64,000 nucleotides of DNA from Octopus vulgaris (Eukaryota). A model generated the notes under the pieces. It did no database searches, was not told the DNA's origin, and worked only from the letters and a program-made list of their open reading frames with translations. The stretch lies in the NCBI GenBank assembly GCA_951406725.2, contig OX597833.1, forward strand, positions 17,422,001 through 17,486,000. Direction: 5' to 3'. How positions within the stretch are numbered: position 1 is the stretch's first letter; every line of letters begins with the position of its first letter. A program made the position numbers and the translations under genes. Below are positions 7,145-62,131 of this stretch, piece by piece.

Positions 7145-7370
7145 ATATTTCTTTACTGCCCACAAGGGGCTAAACATAGAGGGGACAAACAAGGACAGAC
7201 AAAGGGATTAAGTCGATTACATCGACCCCAGAGCGAAACTGGTACTTTATTTATCGACCCCGAAAGGATGAAAAGCAAAGTCGACTTCGGCGGAATTTGA
7301 ACTCAGAACGTAATGGCAGACGAAATACCGGTAAGCATTTCGCCCGGCGTGCTAACGATTCTGCCAGCTC
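7145..7370 (-). mobile_element. SINE group A with TSD TGAATATA
   Basis: Family homology. TGAATATA occurs at 7138 and 7371. Confidence 0.88.
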
Positions 7371-7583
7371 TGAATATAACAAGAACCGATGGTTTGTTTA
7401 TAATTTCAGCGAACAAACTGATGATATCTGCCAACCAATAATAAATCATTATATGCATGGTGACCAGCGAGAATCAAACCGATGACTTCGACATTCATTA
7501 TTAATACGTTGAAGTGGATTCGAATGTGAATGTGTTAATCGCTGCAGAATATACTGAATCACAGGAGAACAACGTCTCCTTCA

Positions 7584-8052
7584 GGCGGCGAGCTGACAGA
7601 ATCGTTAGCACGCCGGGCGAAATGCTTAGCGGTATTTCGTCAGCCGTAACGTTCTGAGTTTAAATTCCGCCGAGGTCGACTTTGCCTTTCATCCTTTCGG
7701 GGGCGATAAATTAAGTACCAGTTACGCACTGGGGTCGCTGTTATCGACTTAACCCCTTTATCTGTCCTTGTTTGTCCTCTCTGTGTTTAGCCCCTTGTGG
7801 GTTGTAAAGAAATTGAAATAGGTATTTCGTCTGTTTTAAAATTGCACGCCGGGCGAAATGCTTAGCAGTATCTCGTCAACCGCTACGTTCTGAGTTCAAA
7901 TTCCGCCGAGGTCGACTTTGCCTTTCATCCTTTCGGGGTCGATTAAATAAGTACCAGTTACGCACTGGGGTCGATATAATCTACTTAAGCCCTTTGTCTG
8001 TCCTTGTTTGTCCCCTCTATGTTTAGTCCCTTGTGGGCAATAAAGAAATAAG
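7584..8052 (+). mobile_element. SINE group A dimer with ~18-bp TSD
   Basis: AGAACAAC(G/C)TCTCCTTCA on both sides. Confidence 0.88.
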
Positions 8053-11421: not shown

Positions 11422-11495
11422 CGATCACGACGAGTCACGAACTTGCAATCTTTTGATTTGAAGTCAGACGCCTTTATCCATTAGGCCACGCATAT
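11422..11495 (-). pseudogene. tRNA-Arg(TCG)-derived pseudogene, anticodon now reads TCA
   Basis: GTGGCCTAATGGATAAAGGCGTCTGACTTCAAATCAAAAGATTGCAAGTTCG closely follows metazoan tRNA-Arg(TCG). The acceptor and T stems are degraded. Confidence 0.75.
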
Positions 11496-16991: not shown

Positions 16992-17720
<729 letters not shown>

Positions 17721-19499: not shown

Positions 19500-19540
19500 T
19501 AAAAAAATGGAGTTAACGCAGGTGTAATCAAATATTTTTA

Positions 19541-19624
19541 CTTTCGACACATGTTTCGAAAGTTCCACTGATACTATTCAAAAGAATAAATGGTATAAAC
19601 AATGCAATCTTCTCCTCAGGAAAG
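19541..19624 (-). ncRNA. Hammerhead ribozyme in the 3' UTR/pLTR of the PLE fragment
   Basis: CTTTC-CTGAGGA-GAAG...CTTTC-GAAAC-ATGT-GTC-GAAAG. It has a 5-bp stem I, an intact core, a GUC site and palindromic ACATGT. A decayed relative lies at 27345-27425. Confidence 0.8.
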
Positions 19625-19825
19625 TGAAAAAAAACGAAACTCGTCAATAAGACATTTTAGCAAAAAATGATGGATTTGTATAGCGATAGACAGAACGCTA
19701 TTAATATTGTTTAAAAAAACGTTATATGATATAACGTCATAAGTAGTTAACAGAAACAGTAGGGATATTAATAGTGAATGTTAAATATAAAGGAAATTAA
19801 AGTTTAACTTATATATAATGATAGA

Positions 19826-20442
19826 GACTATTTATATGCACTAAATGTATGTTTTTACCAATGCTTACATCTGTATGCTCGCTCTATAACCGTGTTTACT
19901 AGCGTATTTTAGAAAAAATAATGAAAAATAGCTCAGAATTGCAGAGAAGACAGAATTTCTTGCCTTTGTCATATGGTATCGAAATTGAAAGAATCAACCA
20001 TTCTAAATGAAATTGTTCATTGTGGTCTTTTAAATCCCAAATCAGTTTGCTGAGACCGGTACTATTTCGTTTATTTCTATTCCTAAATGTTGAGTAATGG
20101 ATAGAAATTCTTTTAGATAACTCTAACGATGTGCTTCCAATGTAAAATCGTACTTTATTACGAGTACTGATTATACACTGGTATATAGAATTTTTAACCT
20201 TAGAGTTACTTGACATAAACTTAATTCTATTGTAATTGACTTCAGATACAATAACCTTGTTATTAATATTTCTAGAGGGTTGGATGGTAGTAGCTAAATT
20301 AATGTTAGTATTAGTAAATGTATTAATATTTAACAGTTTGTTATTATGAGAAGAGATAATTTGCAAGAGATATTTTGTGTTTGAAAAACCTATCCTAACC
20401 TTATGTGAATTGATTATAGAGTAATATCTAGAATTGTTTGGA
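19826..20442 (-). pseudogene. Penelope-like retroelement C-terminus: RT thumb end plus GIY-YIG endonuclease, 5'-truncated and frameshifted
   Basis: KVRIGFS..QIISSHNNKLL...SIYQC...FYIGST...KRISIHYSTF...NSTGLSKLIWDLK...W.IL...Y...CLLCNSE. The terminal LVNT...RCKH lies in a shifted frame. The N-terminal part of ORF 19899-20621 is (TCTA)n read-through. Confidence 0.88.
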
Positions 20443-35282: not shown

Positions 35283-35794
<512 letters not shown>

Positions 35795-44567: not shown

Positions 44568-44850
44568 TACGGAGATGTACTCGCATAGCAAGTGATTTGA
44601 TCTGAGATCGTGTGCTGAAACGAAAACAATTGCAGCGTGGAAGGTGTTTTTAAGCCATTTAAGAAATACACAAAAGCCGTTCGATTCACTTCAACATTTA
44701 AGTTTAATTTGTCAAAATATTTTCGTCGCTAAAATCCGCGACCTGTTCACGAAAATATTTTGACAAATTAAACTTAAATGTTGAAGTGAATCGAACGGCT
44801 TTTGTGTGTTTCTTAAATGGCTTACAAACACCTTCCACGCTGCAATTGTT
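44568..44850 (-). mobile_element. Foldback element with ~102-bp arms and a ~57-bp tail between TA/TACA tracts, HHR-like centre
   Basis: 44625-44726 is inverted at 44749-44850. The minus-strand centre reads GTGAACA-G-GTCGC-GGATTTTA-GCGAC-GAAA-ATATTTT-GACAA. Confidence 0.82.
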
Positions 44851-45478: not shown

Positions 45479-45861
45479 AATTAGAAAAAACCCACCTTTT
45501 ATCAATTCAAAATGAACAATTAAATTACACCATCTAGAAAATTACATATAATAGAAATATTAAAATTAAAATAACAATAAAATGTCAATGATTAAGTAAA
45601 TTACGAAAAAATAATAAAAACGTATATTATTATTATTTTTTTTGTAATTTACTTAATCATTGATATTTTATTGTTATTTTAATTTTAATATTTCTATTAT
45701 ATGTAATTTTCTAGATGGTATAATTTAATTGTTCGTTTTGAATTGATAAAAGGTGGGTTTTTTCTAATTTCTTATATATATATTGTATTGTGTGAAATTT
45801 GATTTAGTATTTCTTAATTGAATTTTTTCCTTGTAAGTTTGGATTTTATTCCCTCAAATAA

Positions 45862-45865
<4 letters not shown>
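45479..45865 (+). mobile_element. ~290-bp AT-rich palindrome plus ~95-bp tail in (TA)n
   Basis: AATTAGAAAAAACCCACC... / ...GGTGGGTTTTTTCTAATT. The tail TTTTCCTTGTAAGTTTGGATTTTATTCCC resembles the tail of 46431-46690. Confidence 0.85.
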
Positions 45866-46387: not shown

Positions 46388-46430
<43 letters not shown>

Positions 46431-46435
<5 letters not shown>

Positions 46436-46690
46436 TTAGAGATAAAACCACTATTAGGCAAATCAAACAGTGAAAAACAGAAATAAAATTAATTAATATA
46501 ATATACAAAATTTATAAAATTCAAAATTTAAATTATTTAAATTTAAAGTTAAAATTTTTTCACTGTTTGATTTGCCTAATAGTGGTTTTATCTCTAATTT
46601 AATATATAAATATATATATGTATATTGTAAAATTAGATTTAATCCTAAATCTAATTTTTCCCTGTAAGTTTGGATTTACTCCCTATTATT
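46431..46690 (+). mobile_element. Foldback with ~48-bp arms plus tail in (TA)n
   Basis: TTAAATTAGAGATAAAACCACTATTAGGCAAATCAAACAGTGAAAAA is inverted at 46556-46602. The tail is TTTTCCCTGTAAGTTTGGATTTACTCCC. Confidence 0.82.
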
Positions 46691-46692
46691 AT

Positions 46693-46748
<56 letters not shown>

Positions 46749-46752
<4 letters not shown>

Positions 46753-47576
46753 GAAATATTAAAATAACTAAGTCTCTCTAAAAGAGAACAGCGGCAGCGT
46801 TCCCGGAAAATAATAGTTATCGCCATACTAATATGGCATTCTTATAAAAATAAGAAAAAGCTGTCCGCTTATTAGCTCCATGAGGCCATCGCCTTAAGTT
46901 AGCTATTTGATACACAAACTGTATCCATATAACCTTCGAACAAGGGAGGTCAGTCGCTCCACACTACTTGACCGGCAGCTACAGACGCGTTTCGGGGTAT
47001 TGCCCCTTTTCAATGCAGCGTAGCCAGCCAGTAGGTTTCGCTTCCGACAATCTCTGTTCGATGGTTTTATTTACCTAGTTTCGGTGGAATACATCCACTT
47101 GTTTTCAATAATAGAAATATTAAAATAACTAAGTCTCTCTAAAAGAGAACAGCGGCAGCGTTCCCGGAAAATAATAGTTATCGCCATACTAATATGGCAT
47201 TCTTATAAAAATAAGAAAAAAGCTGTCCGCTTATTAGCTCCATGAGGCCATCGCCTTAAGTTAGCTATTTGATACACAAACTGTATCCATATAACCTTCC
47301 ACCGAAACTAGGTAAATAAAACCATCGAACAGAGATTGTCGGAAGCGACACCTACTGGCTGGCTACGCTGCATTGAAAAGGGGCAATACCCCGAAACGCG
47401 TCTGTAGCTGCCGGTCAAGTAGTGTGGAGCGACTGACCTCCCTTGTTCGAAGGTTATATGGATACAGTTTGTGTATCAAATAGCTAACTTAAGGCGATGG
47501 CCTCATGGAGCTAATAAGCGGACAGCTTTTTTATTATTTTTATAAGAATGCCATATTAGTATGGCGATAACTATTA
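46749..47576 (-). mobile_element. HHR element: 1.5 head-to-tail copies of a 361-bp unit plus an inverted 280-bp copy, in (TA)n
   Basis: Unit repeats at 46751 and 47112. 47297-47576 is the reverse complement of 46811-47089. HHRs lie at 46978-47019 (-) and 47367-47408 (+). Confidence 0.9.
47367..47408 (+). ncRNA. Minimal hammerhead, U3-A8 core variant (mirror copy at 46978-47019)
   Basis: GCTGCA-TTGAAAA-GGGG-CAATA-CCCC-GAAAC-GC-GTC-TGTAGC: 6-bp stem I, 4-bp stem II, palindromic ACGCGT and a GUC site. Confidence 0.8.
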
Positions 47577-48987
47577 TATATATATATATATATGTGCACA
47601 CACACATGCATACATACATATATATATATATATATACATACATGCATACATACATACAAACACATACACGCACACACGCACGCACACATACACACGCACA
47701 CACACATATACATAGGTGTGTACTTGAAAAATGTTGCAGAATAACAATCCGGTTATTGATATTGGTTCATGTATGTTGATGTATACACCAGCGATCCAAG
47801 TACGCTATGTTATGGATAGAAGTAACAGTTTGTTAAGATGTTGGCTTGTTTGAATACGTTTGGGGTTTGTTTGTGGCTGAAAAAGTTTTCGTTTCTGTAA
47901 TTATGTTTTTGTTACGAGTGAAAGACGTCAAAAGGACATTTATTCAAAGAGCAGACGTTTCGAAATCGCCCTACCTCGAAGAGAGGGTGAAACAATTTGT
48001 AAACTGAAAAGAAACACACCACACTGGCTAAAACTAAAGGCTTTCCCCGAAGGAAATTTGGTAGTCATTTGGTTATTTGATATCGTTGTCTTAAAATAGA
48101 GATTTCTGGAAGAGATTTATCGGATGACATTCCTTAAATTAGTTCAACGATTATAAAAACATGCACATATACATGCATTATACACATACACATACAGACA
48201 CACAAATACATATACACACGGCTCGTATATAACATTTAGAGTTGCAGGGTAGTCAAAATCATCACGTGTGTTCCAAATCTAACAATTTATATGAAATACA
48301 TAACTATATTTTCGAAAAACACATTTTTTTTCTTTTGCTTCGTAGACAAATTAATAATGGTTTTCTTTGAAGACTAATAGATTCATAATTTCCACTACTT
48401 CATAATAAATACATATTAAAACGCCTCATTCATAAACTAATGTGTCAGAATGATAAACATTTACACCTGTTACCGACAGCCTATGATTCCGTAATTACAT
48501 TTTGATTTGCCACCTATTTCTCATTTGTCAATGCCAAACTCACCTGAGCATCATTTCACAATGCTTTTGGTCCCTGTCAAATTATACTAAGTTATAAAAA
48601 TATAGAAAACTAGCTTTTCAGAGAACACTTTATTATATCAGGTTACAGATAGCTTTTCTATGTCTTAGAGAAAATGTAGAAGTTATCTGTGTGAGTATGT
48701 TTAATAAAAAAAAAACTAAATCTGTTCCATATTGTAATTACTCTGTCTTCGAAGGGAACATGAAAACGATGCCTGACTAGAACAGAGGCAAATAACAACA
48801 GCAACAACAACAACAACAACAAAAATAATGGTTTCTAATTTGGGCACAGCTCAATCCAGAGAACTACGTTAAGGGTACACGTGTCTATGGAGTGCTCAGC
48901 CACTTGTACGTTAATTTCACGAGCAGGCTGTACCGTTGATCGGATCAACAGGAATCCTCGTCGTCGTAACCGACGTAGTGCCCACGA

Positions 48988-54114: not shown

Positions 54115-54574
54115 TGCCATGAAGGAAAAGAAAGAGGCTTGTTCTTGACGTTTCCATTTCATTCTTTCGGAGTTGATATAATTAAACCAGTTCAGTACTG
54201 GGATCGATATAATTGATTATTTCTCTCCCCTAAAATTGCGGGCCTTATGCCGAGATTTGAAACTGTTTTATGTGAGGTGGTGAGCTGGCGGAATCGTTAG
54301 CGCGTCGGACAAAATGCTTAGTGACATTTCTTCCAGCTTTTGACGTTCTGTGTTCAAATTCCGCAGAGATTAACCTTTGCCTTTCATCTTTTCGGGGAAC
54401 GGGGATAAAATAAGTACCAGTTGAATACTGAATTAGATGTAATCGGTTTGCTTTCTCCTCCAAAAATTGCTGGCCTTGTGTTAAAACTTAAACCCAAAGG
54501 CAGCAACTTGGTGGAATCATTAGTGCGTCGGATGAAATACTTAGAGGTATTTCTTTCGGAATCTTTGTTCCAAT

Positions 54575-54812
54575 ACCTATTTCTTTATTACCCACAAGGG
54601 GCTAAACACAGAGGGGACAAACAAGGACAGACATAGGTATTAAGTCGATTACATCGACCCCAGTGCGTAACTGGTACTTAATTTATCGACCCCGAAAGGA
54701 TGAAAGGCAAAGTCGACCTCGGCGGAATTTGAACTCACAACGTAACGCAGACGAAATACCCCTAAGCATTTCGCCCGGCGTGTTAACGTTTCTGCCAGTT
54801 CGCCGCCTTCTG
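54575..54812 (-). mobile_element. SINE group A with TSD TGTTCCAATACC
   Basis: Duplicated at 54566 and 54813. Confidence 0.88.
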
Positions 54813-55269
54813 TGTTCCAATACCGTTGTGGTCCACTTATCCCTTCAGCTCAAAATTGATAATAAATCGTGCATATGATGATTTATTATCGGTTGGCAGA
54901 TACCAGCACGGATTACCGAAAAGTTTGTTCGTTGAAATTATAAAGAATAGTTCCAACTGTTTTTAGATTCATTAGTCAGAGGTGCCACTGACTGACGTGA
55001 CGCAGAAATGTCGAAACACCGGTTATTACTGAGTCCTTTCCGCTAACGAATTGTTTCAAATTTTTGCACAAGACTCTTTTGTTTCATCGACCCCCCAGTG
55101 TATTTATTTTATCATTCTGGTATTTATTTTATCGTTCCAAAGAGATGAAAGGTAAATTCTACTTCAGCAGAATTTGAGCACAGAACATAAAGAAGCTGAA
55201 GAAATGCAGCAAAGCATTATGTCCGAGGTTCGAATGAGTCTGTCAGCTCACCTTCCTTGCCCTAAAAAA

Positions 55270-55820
55270 AGTTGGCAGAATCGTTAGCACGCCGGGCGAA
55301 ATGCTTAGCGGTATTTCGTCAGCGTTACGTTGTGAGTTCAAATTCCGCCGAGGTCGACTTTGCCTTTCATCCTTCCGGGGTCGATAAATTAAGTACCAGT
55401 TACGCACTGGGGTCGATGTAATCGACTTAATACCTATGTCTGTCCTTGTTTGTCCTCTCTGTGTTTAGCCCCTTGTGGATAGTAAAGAAATAGGTATTTC
55501 GTTTGCGTTACGTTCTGAGCTCAAATTCCGCCGAGGTCGTCTTTGCCTTTCATCCTTTCGGGGTCGCTAAATTAAGTACCAGTTACGCACTGGGGTCGAT
55601 GTAATCGGCTTAACCCCTCTGTCTGTCCCTTGTGAGCAATAAAGAAATAAGAAACGTTAGCACGCCGGGCGAAATGCTTAGCGATATTTCGTCTGTCTTT
55701 ACGTTCTGAGTTCAAATTCCGTCGGGGTCGATAAATTAAGTACCCGTTGCGCACTGGGGTCGACGTAATCGACAAGCCTCTTCCCCAAAGACTTCGAGCC
55801 TTGTACCTAGAGTAGAAAAT
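55270..55820 (+). mobile_element. SINE group A trimer
   Basis: Family homology. Confidence 0.88.
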
Positions 55821-57272: not shown

Positions 57273-59435
57273 TAATTAATATTGATTTCAAATGTTGGTA
57301 TCAAACACGCAATTTCGGGGATGGGGTAAGTCGCTGAAAGGGTTCTTATTTTTATAATCCCCGAAAGGATGAAAGACAAAGTCGACCTCGGCAGAATTTG
57401 AACTCAGAGCGTGAAGACGGACAAAATATCGCTAAACATTTTGCTCGGCGTGCTAACGATTCTGCCATCTCGCCACCTTACACCCTTTTAATTAATATTG
57501 ATTTCAAATTTTGGTATCAAACACGCAATTTCGGGGATGGAGTAAGTCGCTGAAAGGGTTCTTATTTTTATAATCCCCGAAAGGATGAAAGACAAAGTCG
57601 ACCTCGGCAGAATTTGAACTCAGAGCGTGAAGACGGACAAAATATCGCTAAACATTTTGCTCGGCGTGCTAACGATTCTGCCATCTCGCCACCTTACACC
57701 CTTTTAATTAATATTGATTTCAAATTTTGGTATCAAACACGCAATTTCGGGGATGGGGTAAGTCGCTGAAAGGGTTCTTATTTTTATAATCCCCGAAAGG
57801 ATGAAAGACAAAGTCGACCTCGGCAGAATTTGAACTCAGAGCGTGAAGACGGACAAAATATCGCTAAACATTTTGCTCGGCGTGCTAACGATTCTGCCAT
57901 CTCGCCACCTTACACCCTTTTAATTAATATTGATTTCAAATTTTGGTATCAAACACGCAATTTCGGGGATGGGGTAAGTCGCTGAAAGGGTTCTTATTTT
58001 TATAATCCCCGAAAGGATGAAAGACAAAGTCGACCTCGGCAGAATTTGAACTCAGAGCGTGAAGACGGACAAAATATCGCTAAACATGTTGCCCGGCGTG
58101 CTAACGATTCTGCCATCTCGCCACCTTACACCCTTTTAATTAATATTGATTTCAAATTTTGGTATCAAACACGCAATTTCGGGGATGGGGTAAGTCGCTG
58201 AAAGGGTTCTTATTTTTATAATCTCCGAAAGGATGAAAGACAAAGTCGACCTCGGCAGAATTTGAACTCAGAGCGTGAAGACGGACAAAATATCGCTAAA
58301 CATGTTGCCCGGCGTGCTAACGATTCTGCCATCTCGCCACCTTACACCCTTTTAATTAATATTGATTTCAAATTTTGGTATCAAACACGCAATTTCGGGG
58401 ATGGAGTAAGTCGCTGAAAGGGTTCTTATTTTTATAATCCCCGAAAGGATGAAAGACAAAGTCGACCTCGGCAGAATTTGAACTCAGAGCGTGAAGACGG
58501 ACAAAATATCGCTAAACATGTTGCCCGGCGTGCTAACGATTCTGCCATCTCGCCACCTTACACCCTTTTAATTAATATTGATTTCAAATTTTGGTATCAA
58601 ACACGCAATTTCGGGGATGGAGTAAGTCGCTGAAAGGGTTCTTATTTTTATAATCTCCGAAAGGATGAAAGACAAAGTCGACCTCGGCAGAATTTGAACT
58701 CAGAGCGTGAAGACGGACAAAATATCGCTAAACATGTTGCCCGGCGTGCTAACGATTCTGCCATCTCGCCACCTTACACCCTTTTAATTAATATTGATTT
58801 CAAATTTTGGTATCAAACACGCAATTTCGGGGATGGAGTAAGTCGCTGAAAGGGTTCTTATTTTTATAATCCCCGAAAGGATGAAAGACAAAGTCGACCT
58901 CGGCAGAATTTGAACTCAGAGCGTGAAGACGGACAAAATATCGCTAAACATGTTGCCCGGCGTGCTAACGATTCTGCCATCTCGCCACCTTACACCCTTT
59001 TAATTAATATTGATTTCAAATTTTGGTATCAAACACGCAATTTCGGGGATGGAGTAAGTCGCTGAAAGGGTTCTTATTTTTATAATCCCCGAAAGGATGA
59101 AAGACAAAGTCGACCTCGGCAGAATTTGAACTCAGAGCGTGAAGACGGACAAAATATCGCTAAACATGTTGCCCGGCGTGCTAACGATTCTGCCATCTCG
59201 CCACCTTACACCCTTTTAATTAATATTGATTTCAAATTTTGGTATCAAACACGCAATTTCGGGGATGGGGTAAGTCGCTGAAAGGGTTCTTATTTTTATA
59301 ATCTCCGAAAGGATGAAAGACAAAGTCGACCTCGGCAGAATTTGAACTCAGAACGTGAAGACGGACAGAATGTCGCTAAACATTTTGCCCGGCGTGCTAA
59401 CGATTCTGCCGGCTCGCCACATTACACGCTTTTAA
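57273..59435 (-). repeat. Tandem array of 10 x 216-bp units derived from a group A SINE
   Basis: CCGAAAGGATGAAAGAC occurs at 57361, 57577 and onward to 59305 (period 216). A more ancestral-looking unit follows at 59440-59670. Confidence 0.96.
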
Positions 59436-60219
59436 TTTATAGTGATTTCAAATTTTGGCACAAGGCCAGCAAGTTCGGGGGAGGGGTTAAGTCGATTACA
59501 TCGACCCCCAGTGTTCCACTGATCCTTATTTTATCGACCCAAAAAGAATGAAAGGCAAAGTCGTCCGTGGCGGAATTTGAACTCAGAACGTAAAGACAGA
59601 CGAAATGCCACTAAGCATTTGGCCCGGCGAGTAAACGATTCTAGCAACTCCTTACCTTAAGCTTTTAATTAATACTAACCAGTAAAATAAGGGAGCAAGC
59701 TAGCAGAGCTGTTAGCATGTGGGGTAAAATGCTTAGCGGCATTTCGTCCGTCTTTACGTTCTGGGTTCAAATTCTGCCAAAGTCGACTTAGCTTTTCATC
59801 CCTTTGGGGGGGGCGTTAAAATAAGCACCAGTTCAATACTGGGATCGATGTAATCGACTTAACCACGAAATTGCTGACCTTGGGCCAAAATGTAAAACAA
59901 ATATCAATTATAAGATTAAGGCGGTAAGCTGGCGAAATAGCTAAGCACGCCGCCTTAATCTTTGATGAAATAAGTACCAGTTGAGTACTGGGGTCGATGT
60001 AATCGTCTGGCCACTTCATCAGTAGAAAGGAATATTAATTTTAAGAGTGCTAATCTGTGTTTAGCATTGCTAGTATGGTCAAGAAACTCACTTTGCAACG
60101 ACCTGGTTTCGGGTTCAGTCCCACTGCGTGGCACCTTGAGTAAGTATCTTCTGCATTAGCCTCAGACTAACGAATGCCTTGTGATTGAATTTGACAGATG
60201 GAGTCTATGCAGAAGCCTA

Positions 60220-62085: not shown

Positions 62086-62131
62086 AACACAACGTTTCGG
62101 CTGATATACCTTCCAGCCTTCATCAGGTGTC
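62086..62131 (-). ncRNA. Canonical minimal type-I hammerhead ribozyme
   Basis: GACAC-CTGATGA-A-GGCTG-GAAGGTATAT-CAGCC-GAAAC-GTT-GTGTT. Confidence 0.82.

Follow-up and report, generated by a model that had tools for sequence, protein, structure and literature searches.

A young copy of a non-coding hammerhead retrozyme family in Octopus vulgaris with a PLE-type insertion signature

Animal non-LTR retrozymes are described as non-coding elements with head-to-tail monomers of about 150–450 bp (350–390-bp repeats in mussel), a GC content below 45–50%, strong self-pairing, and one type I hammerhead with a C3-G8 core per monomer (Cervera & de la Pena 2020, PMC7229834; Li, Clavereau & Pollet 2026, bioRxiv 10.64898/2026.07.22.740005). 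The canonical metazoan type I frame consists of a 6-bp stem I, a 4-bp stem II, and a 2-bp stem III with a palindromic loop (PMC4209133). Circular forms of retrozymes build up in coral, mussel, and axolotl. Eight of nine Xenopus retrozyme dimers are reported as uncleaved in vitro (bioRxiv 10.64898/2026.07.22.740005). What mobilizes animal retrozymes is an open question in print: Penelope-like elements (PLEs) have been proposed (PMC7229834), a 2026 preprint adds co-occurrence and pLTR homology (bioRxiv 10.64898/2026.07.22.740005), and retrozymes have already been argued to be non-autonomous PLE derivatives in both of these sources.

PLE insertions are described as a partial tandem adjacent to an inverted truncated copy, with a one-sided tail of 30–40 bp and, in several clades, a (TA)n target (PMC8557442, PMC3846280). 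Rolling of the enzyme past one turn of its template is a published proposal for PLE tandems, and the PLE cycle behind tandem and inverted insertions and tails has been called undefined (PMC8557442). The anole Poseidon protein was reported to cut and extend both strands, with a tail as long as the spacing of two RT start sites (PMC11167929). For PAc, the single PLE studied in vitro, hammerhead cleavage was dispensable for insertion and unprocessed RNA was used (PMC11167929).

In the 64-kb stretch of Octopus vulgaris DNA analyzed here (the window), a locus at 46747–47577 was found to consist of a direct unit, a partial second unit, and an inverted copy, with (TA)n on both flanks (Table 1). The locus is best explained, with good though incomplete confidence, as a recent insertion of a non-coding 362-nt retrozyme of high copy number, likely made in trans by a PLE RT/GIY-YIG protein. 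On its sequence-level features the family is filed among the animal non-LTR retrozymes, as an additional family and not a new kind of element, and it may already be catalogued in Repbase or Dfam.

Table 1. Features of the retrozyme locus, with positions counted from the first letter of the window
Feature	Position	Strand	Basis and remarks
Left (TA)n target tract	46696..46749	.	Sequence; end of an older hairpin relic (46430-46696)
Full monomer, 361 bp	46747..47107	-	46747 is the element 3' end in hammerhead sense; family majority 362
One-sided extension (tail), 63 nt	46747..46809	-	Between ATAATAG copies at 46747 and 46810; compare PMC8557442, PMC11167929
Type I hammerhead (predicted), first copy	46968..47031	-	Descriptor scan, fold, covariation
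Predicted three-way junction across the head-to-tail joint	47073..47134	-	13 joint-crossing pairs with p>0.5
Second, 5'-truncated monomer, 192 bp	47108..47299	-	99.5% identical to unit 1, one extra A
TTC microhomology between direct and inverted arms	47297..47299	.	Part of both arms
Inverted 5'-truncated copy, 281 bp	47297..47577	+	98.9% to 46810-47089 (unit positions 64-343)
Type I hammerhead (predicted), second copy	47355..47418	+	Descriptor scan; core 47373-47379, predicted cut after 47402
Right (TA)n target tract	47575..47593	.	Sequence

Sequence comparison bore out what an earlier note had described from the letters alone, namely a 361-bp unit, its direct repeat, a switch at TTC, an inverted copy, and the lack of an ORF; the start at 46749 and the shortfall of 62 bp given there are the same unit under another numbering (46747 and 63 nt). 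Beyond the copies at 46747–47577, no further copy of the 361-bp unit was found in the 64-kb window. Stop-free stretches of the unit reach at most 55 codons on either strand, even when three turns are joined, and no ORF was found; the GC content of the monomer is 41.4%. A search of the unit with a Pol III promoter pattern revealed no A box and a single GTTCGA hexamer.

Both arms begin exactly at copies of the heptamer ATAATAG, which occurs exactly twice in the monomer, 63 nt apart. Each start includes an ATA common to the target: in unit 1, the first three letters belong to both the unit and the (TA)n tract. The second heptamer, 63 nt into the unit, is where the inverted arm begins, and this arm thus has no tail; unit 2 breaks off 46 nt before reaching its own hammerhead cut site. 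The target is (TA)n on both sides, which would mask any target-site duplication. Taken together, the offset of 63 nt, the inversion, and the (TA)n target match the typical signature of PLE insertions, a point overlooked in the earlier note.

At least half of the sampled unit words were present in 20 of the 24 listed sequencing runs, from 10 studies. These include runs of only 5–6 million letters, a pointer to high copy number; the eight organism labels among them are not a host range, as skims or carry-over may account for the smallest runs. None of these runs is on record as RNA. X12, one of seven runs guessed to be RNA, covers the whole unit, a coverage that implies neither transcription, a start, nor a circle. 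The contigs of four of the 20 runs were compared with a permuted monomer (46900–47261), which places the joint, the ends, and the hammerhead inside; of run X1, 76% was read, and its summed depth is no copy number. Exact and degenerate motif scans of metagenome contigs, viral contigs, and prokaryotic genomes gave no match.

The family monomer is 362 nt, where unit 1 of the locus is short of one A, so that the length of 361 proposed earlier holds for unit 1 and gives way to 362 for the family majority. In run X6, a single 392-nt contig represents the 362-nt cycle plus an overlap of 30, with zero loose ends, and run X13 contains the same 362-nt cycle plus one bubble; both are small DNA-type runs. 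The joint at which a contig goes back 362 was present in all four runs compared, and the share continuing into unlike sequence was 0, 0, 0, and 0.1. Additionally, a diverged X1 contig (46971–47151, with 21 differences in 181 nt, or 88% identity) crosses 47107/47108 and reaches more than 31 letters beyond it in both directions. The closed cycles and this bridging contig indicate that the head-to-tail joint is intrinsic to the family and older than the divergence of its subfamilies. A closed cycle in DNA contigs is a consequence of any head-to-tail arrangement and is silent on RNA topology. The earlier proposal of a retrozyme-like template, circle or multimer, is supported by the head-to-tail cycle of the family, although this cycle does not favor the circle.

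These contigs bear directly on a reading of the locus in which three 5'-truncated copies of an autonomous PLE's pLTR were joined by template jumps and 361 is the length of the first truncation. Partial tandems and opposite-strand hammerhead pairs 100–700 bp apart are typical of PLE relics, and 79 further loose ends lie outside the 12 of 91 that were listed. However, the joint recurs in all four runs and in the 88%-identical copy, the cycle from the two small runs is closed and branchless, and each loose end listed is either a (TA)n flank or a diverged form of the unit. The family-wide joint disposes of most of this reading, which is considered quite improbable. The 12 listed ends comprise (TA)n before 47108, one internal-end (TA)n in X12, and ten diverged unit versions, and none is an ORF-like branch. 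The earlier note had named a PLE ORF upstream of the unit in other copies as evidence against its proposal; in the closed 362-nt cycle, the sequence found there is another monomer. The RT and GIY-YIG ORF of autonomous PLEs is absent from the unit and from the 12 of 91 loose ends listed, and neither an autonomous partner PLE nor a sequence link from the unit to a PLE ORF was found in the window and the contigs compared.

The main end of the family, before 47108, abuts (TA)n in 34 X1 contigs and is the same end as at this locus. Only this first end was seen in the 34 contigs, and ends at the second heptamer (47171) were absent among the 12 of 91 loose ends listed, so that the evidence for two-site priming comes from this locus. 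The precise end also bears on an origin as satellite DNA, spread and inverted by recombination or repair at the DNA level with no RNA step. Such an origin would accommodate the head-to-tail unit, the 3-nt microhomology, which is a mark of repair too, and array lengths, which are not fixed by the contigs. It is nevertheless improbable given a single precise end at (TA)n common to the 34 contigs, the same heptamer at the beginning of both arms, and the conserved ribozyme structure.

An opposite-strand joint (46968/47243, depth 50.8) in the X1 contigs is derived from another locus and reveals inversions elsewhere in the family. The inversion joint of the present locus (46937/47089) was unlisted in all four runs compared (76% of X1 read), and assemblers are troubled by such structures, as would be expected from an assembly artefact, either a fold-back chimera or a collapsed repeat. 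Against such an artefact stand the family inversion joint in X1, the separate differences of each arm from the family majority, the unmirrored flanks, and the coincidence of the ends with the family end and the twin heptamer, and it is considered very improbable. The locus differs from the family majority at three of 834 positions: T47037, which is in none of the four runs, the missing A in unit 1, and one change in the inverted arm. The insertion is hence young, in agreement with the "very young" of the earlier note. No minority letters are common to both arms, and the arms thus do not show a single templating molecule.

On the minus strand, the predicted hammerhead includes a 6-bp stem I, a 4-bp stem II, and a palindromic stem III (ACGCGU), which forms 2 bp with a palindromic loop, and a 7–8-bp outer stem beyond an internal loop. 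The core UUGAAAA at 47013–47007 has U3-A8 replacing C3-G8, and a cut is predicted after GUC at 46984. A descriptor scan of the 64 kb matched 47013–46984 (−), 47373–47402 (+), and weakly one site at 2112, where none of ten shuffled windows gave an equally strict match and two of ten gave one loose match. The hammerhead with its outer stem folds at z −2.57 (1 of 200 shuffles), while Rfam detected no hammerhead at the gathering score or at E up to 10. The U3-A8 covariation is known from Schistosoma Cercyon PLE hammerheads (PMC4209133), the sole paper found in a literature search on this core. The label of a non-canonical hammerhead is thereby narrowed: the core does deviate, by a known covariation on an otherwise canonical type I frame.

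With unit 2 ending 46 nt before the cut site, the locus is left with two hammerheads, one on each strand. The two consecutive complete hammerheads taken to mark an "active" copy (Li 2026) are thus absent, and this copy could not release a monomer itself. Judging from the sequence, a read-through transcript of the locus would form a long double-stranded hairpin. In a predicted co-fold, the self-dimer reached −60.9 kcal/mol compared to −54.8 kcal/mol for two monomers, with the ACGCGU helix being intermolecular.

The circular monomer was predicted to fold at −117.4 kcal/mol, against −84.2 ± 5.7 for its shuffles (z −5.85; 0 of 100 shuffles), and 14 control tiles ranged from z −3.3 to +1.6. The antisense strand folds nearly as well (z −5.4). 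Among the common X1 variants, eight of nine fall on unpaired bases or preserve pairs, which is modest support since 71.5% of random transitions (50% of all changes) are expected to fit the fold. Two common X1 variants, at 47016 (31%) and 46971 (23%), turn G.U pairs into A-U and G-C. None of the listed X1 variants is in the hammerhead core. A pair change from A-U to G-C at 47032/46966 was left uncounted, as its two sides are on different contigs.

Inspection by eye of a diverged X12 contig (record 12, depth 22) showed that it retains the hammerhead core, GAAA, and GUC. Its stem III is changed from ACGCGU to ACAUGU with the palindrome retained, and its stem I has a G.U replaced by G-C. The outer stem includes one clear two-sided change, from G-C to A-U, and a change from G.U to U-A that is contingent on a 2-nt insertion. 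Contrary changes were also observed: two pairs are broken, and G10.1-C11.1 is weakened to G.U. The compensating changes in this copy argue for selection on the hammerhead.

The predicted junction at the head-to-tail joint could be formed only by a circle or multimer, since its high-probability pairs span the joint. It presents UUGAAAA, a hairpin, and CGAAAC in a type III-like order, and its start lies 1 nt away from the main insertion end. An interpretation of the joint as a second hammerhead was rejected for extra bases at three places and a common change at the A15.1-equivalent, which is G in 25% of the X1 depth. Despite its hammerhead-like letters, the modeled junction is probably not catalytic; possibly it is a decayed second hammerhead reused as an RT start structure.

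The arm starts at the twin heptamers, taken with the published PLE mechanism, lead to a reading of the locus as two cDNAs primed on opposite strands, and insertion by two-strand target priming is likely. In the proposed order of events, transcription of a head-to-tail array would come first. The hammerhead, with nothing but a palindrome for stem III, would cleave in dimeric form, and ligation would turn the monomer into a circle that by itself stays inert. A PLE protein would then nick both strands of the (TA)n tract, and each nicked end would prime cDNA at one of the two CUAUUAU sites 63 nt apart. Priming would pair 3 nt (ATA) with the target, and both sites are predicted to be largely unpaired. 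The first cDNA would extend over 553 nt (1.5 turns, past one hammerhead site and the joint) and the second over 281 nt, and the two truncated 3' ends would be joined via TTC. Twin priming of the L1 type on one linear RNA was considered and set aside: it is indistinguishable here and leaves the start of the second arm on the twin heptamer unexplained.

The architecture of the locus implies a template that held more than one turn and had uncut or re-ligated hammerhead sites, for which a circle and an uncut linear multimer appear about equally probable. The specific version in which the element is an active circular-RNA parasite, and a PLE RT dimer primes both (TA)n strands at the two CUAUUAU sites and rolls past one turn, falls a little short of an even chance. 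As a sub-case of the favored explanation, the same family and enzyme may instead have used an uncut linear read-through multimer, with an inactive or irrelevant hammerhead and no circle; this is a serious possibility, though somewhat below an even chance. It agrees with the unprocessed RNA used by PAc in vitro, the eight of nine Xenopus dimers left uncleaved, the passage of the direct arm through one hammerhead site and of the inverted arm through another, and a DNA-level cycle that is uninformative on RNA topology. The core and palindrome kept in the diverged copy, the fold that crosses the joint, and the circles built up by coral, mussel, and axolotl retrozymes speak against it.

With the animal non-LTR retrozymes (PMC7229834; mussel repeats; bioRxiv 10.64898/2026.07.22.740005), the family shares a non-coding head-to-tail monomer (the 362-nt cycle of X6 and X13, with 1.5 turns at the locus), 41% GC, strong self-pairing, PLEs in the same genome, and a single type I hammerhead in the canonical frame whose stem III is palindromic. 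In contrast, its core is U3-A8 and not C3-G8, it is represented by contigs only where a circle is known for the others, and the inverted arm, one-sided tail, and (TA)n target set it apart. Terms for inversion, tail, and (TA)n are absent from the main text of PMC7229834 and, in this sense, from the 2026 preprint. With the EN+ PLEs (Penelope/Poseidon, Neptune, and Naiad; PMC8557442, PMC3846280, PMC11167929), the locus shares the partial tandem with an inverted truncated neighbor, a candidate one-sided tail, the AT-rich or (TA)n target (on both flanks and in the 34 X1 contigs), and a hammerhead upstream of the putative RT start sites. It differs from them in the missing RT/GIY-YIG ORF and in a tail of 63 nt compared to 30–40, which counts against the favored explanation. 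Unlike PAc, which is reported to start without target homology, both starts here share the heptamer and 3 nt of target pairing.

Similarly, the non-autonomous Chlamys elements, such as MRC1, derive from PLEs but lack an ORF, and they have pLTRs and insert in multiple head-to-tail copies (PMC8557442). However, they belong to green algae, canonical hammerheads are described as largely missing there, and they resemble autonomous partners at their 3' ends (PMC8557442), while no such partner match was seen here. The Cercyon PLE hammerheads of Schistosoma mansoni have the identical U3-A8 covariation but are minimal PLE motifs, mostly single (PMC4209133), whereas the present family has a canonical 6/4-bp frame in a tandem monomer. 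In the literature searched, which lay outside most subscription journals and all supplements, neither a retrozyme insertion with a tail, an inversion, and a microsatellite target nor a cephalopod hammerhead family was found.

The window is repeat-rich, with microsatellites and SINE-like repeats. A PLE 3' fragment at 19520–20440 (−) ends in (TA)n and includes the end of a GIY-YIG-like ORF (Atlas 0.95 to a GIY-YIG cluster) and a 3' UTR in which a stretch near 19620 resembles a decayed hammerhead. The GIY-YIG assignment is an Atlas lead alone, with no useful Pfam match and none among longer proteins, and the fragment has no sequence link to the retrozyme unit. Another repeat, with copies at 1093–1420 (−) and 17310–17650 (−), has a (TA)n end and a hammerhead-like motif with U3-A8 and a palindromic stem III; U3-A8 is thus not unique to this family in the genome. 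A minimal PLE-type hammerhead with a C3-G8 core is at 62126 (−).

Hairpin relics were found beside TA-rich microsatellites at 1700–1932, 45479–45865, 46430–46696, 35525–35794, and 44625–44850. On the first three, one side is extended by about 65–90 nt; this extension is common to 45479–45865 and 46430–46696 (73% over 124 nt), and the (TA)n at the end of the latter is the insertion site of the retrozyme. The PLE fragment, the hammerhead-bearing ends, and the three tailed relics indicate that PLEs are abundant in this genome. A 24-nt AT-rich match (45543–45566 / 45682–45705; E 9e-5) between a PLE-type hairpin relic and the retrozyme 3' end is either chance or the trace of a partner family. The inverted pairs at 7146–8050 and 54572–55498 were rejected as related structures, being opposed copies of a dispersed SINE-like repeat. 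A tandem array at 57273–59674 has about 11 copies of a 216-bp unit including part of a dispersed SINE-like repeat, and a tRNA-like match just over the Rfam threshold at 11428–11490 (−) is probably a pseudogene or SINE head.

The locus is of value as a natural record of how a ribozyme repeat lacking an ORF integrates in PLE fashion. Being young, abundant, non-coding, and marked by the full PLE footprint, the family would offer thousands of natural reaction products to map, and its monomer is a short, defined RNA suited to tests with PLE protein. If a PLE-primed circle is the true origin, the tail, tandem, and inversion would be explained by one model, and retrozyme families with a U3-A8 core would escape C3-G8 descriptors and Rfam. 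The family would then provide evidence from structure, going further than co-occurrence and pLTR homology, for the mobilization of animal retrozymes by PLE enzymes.
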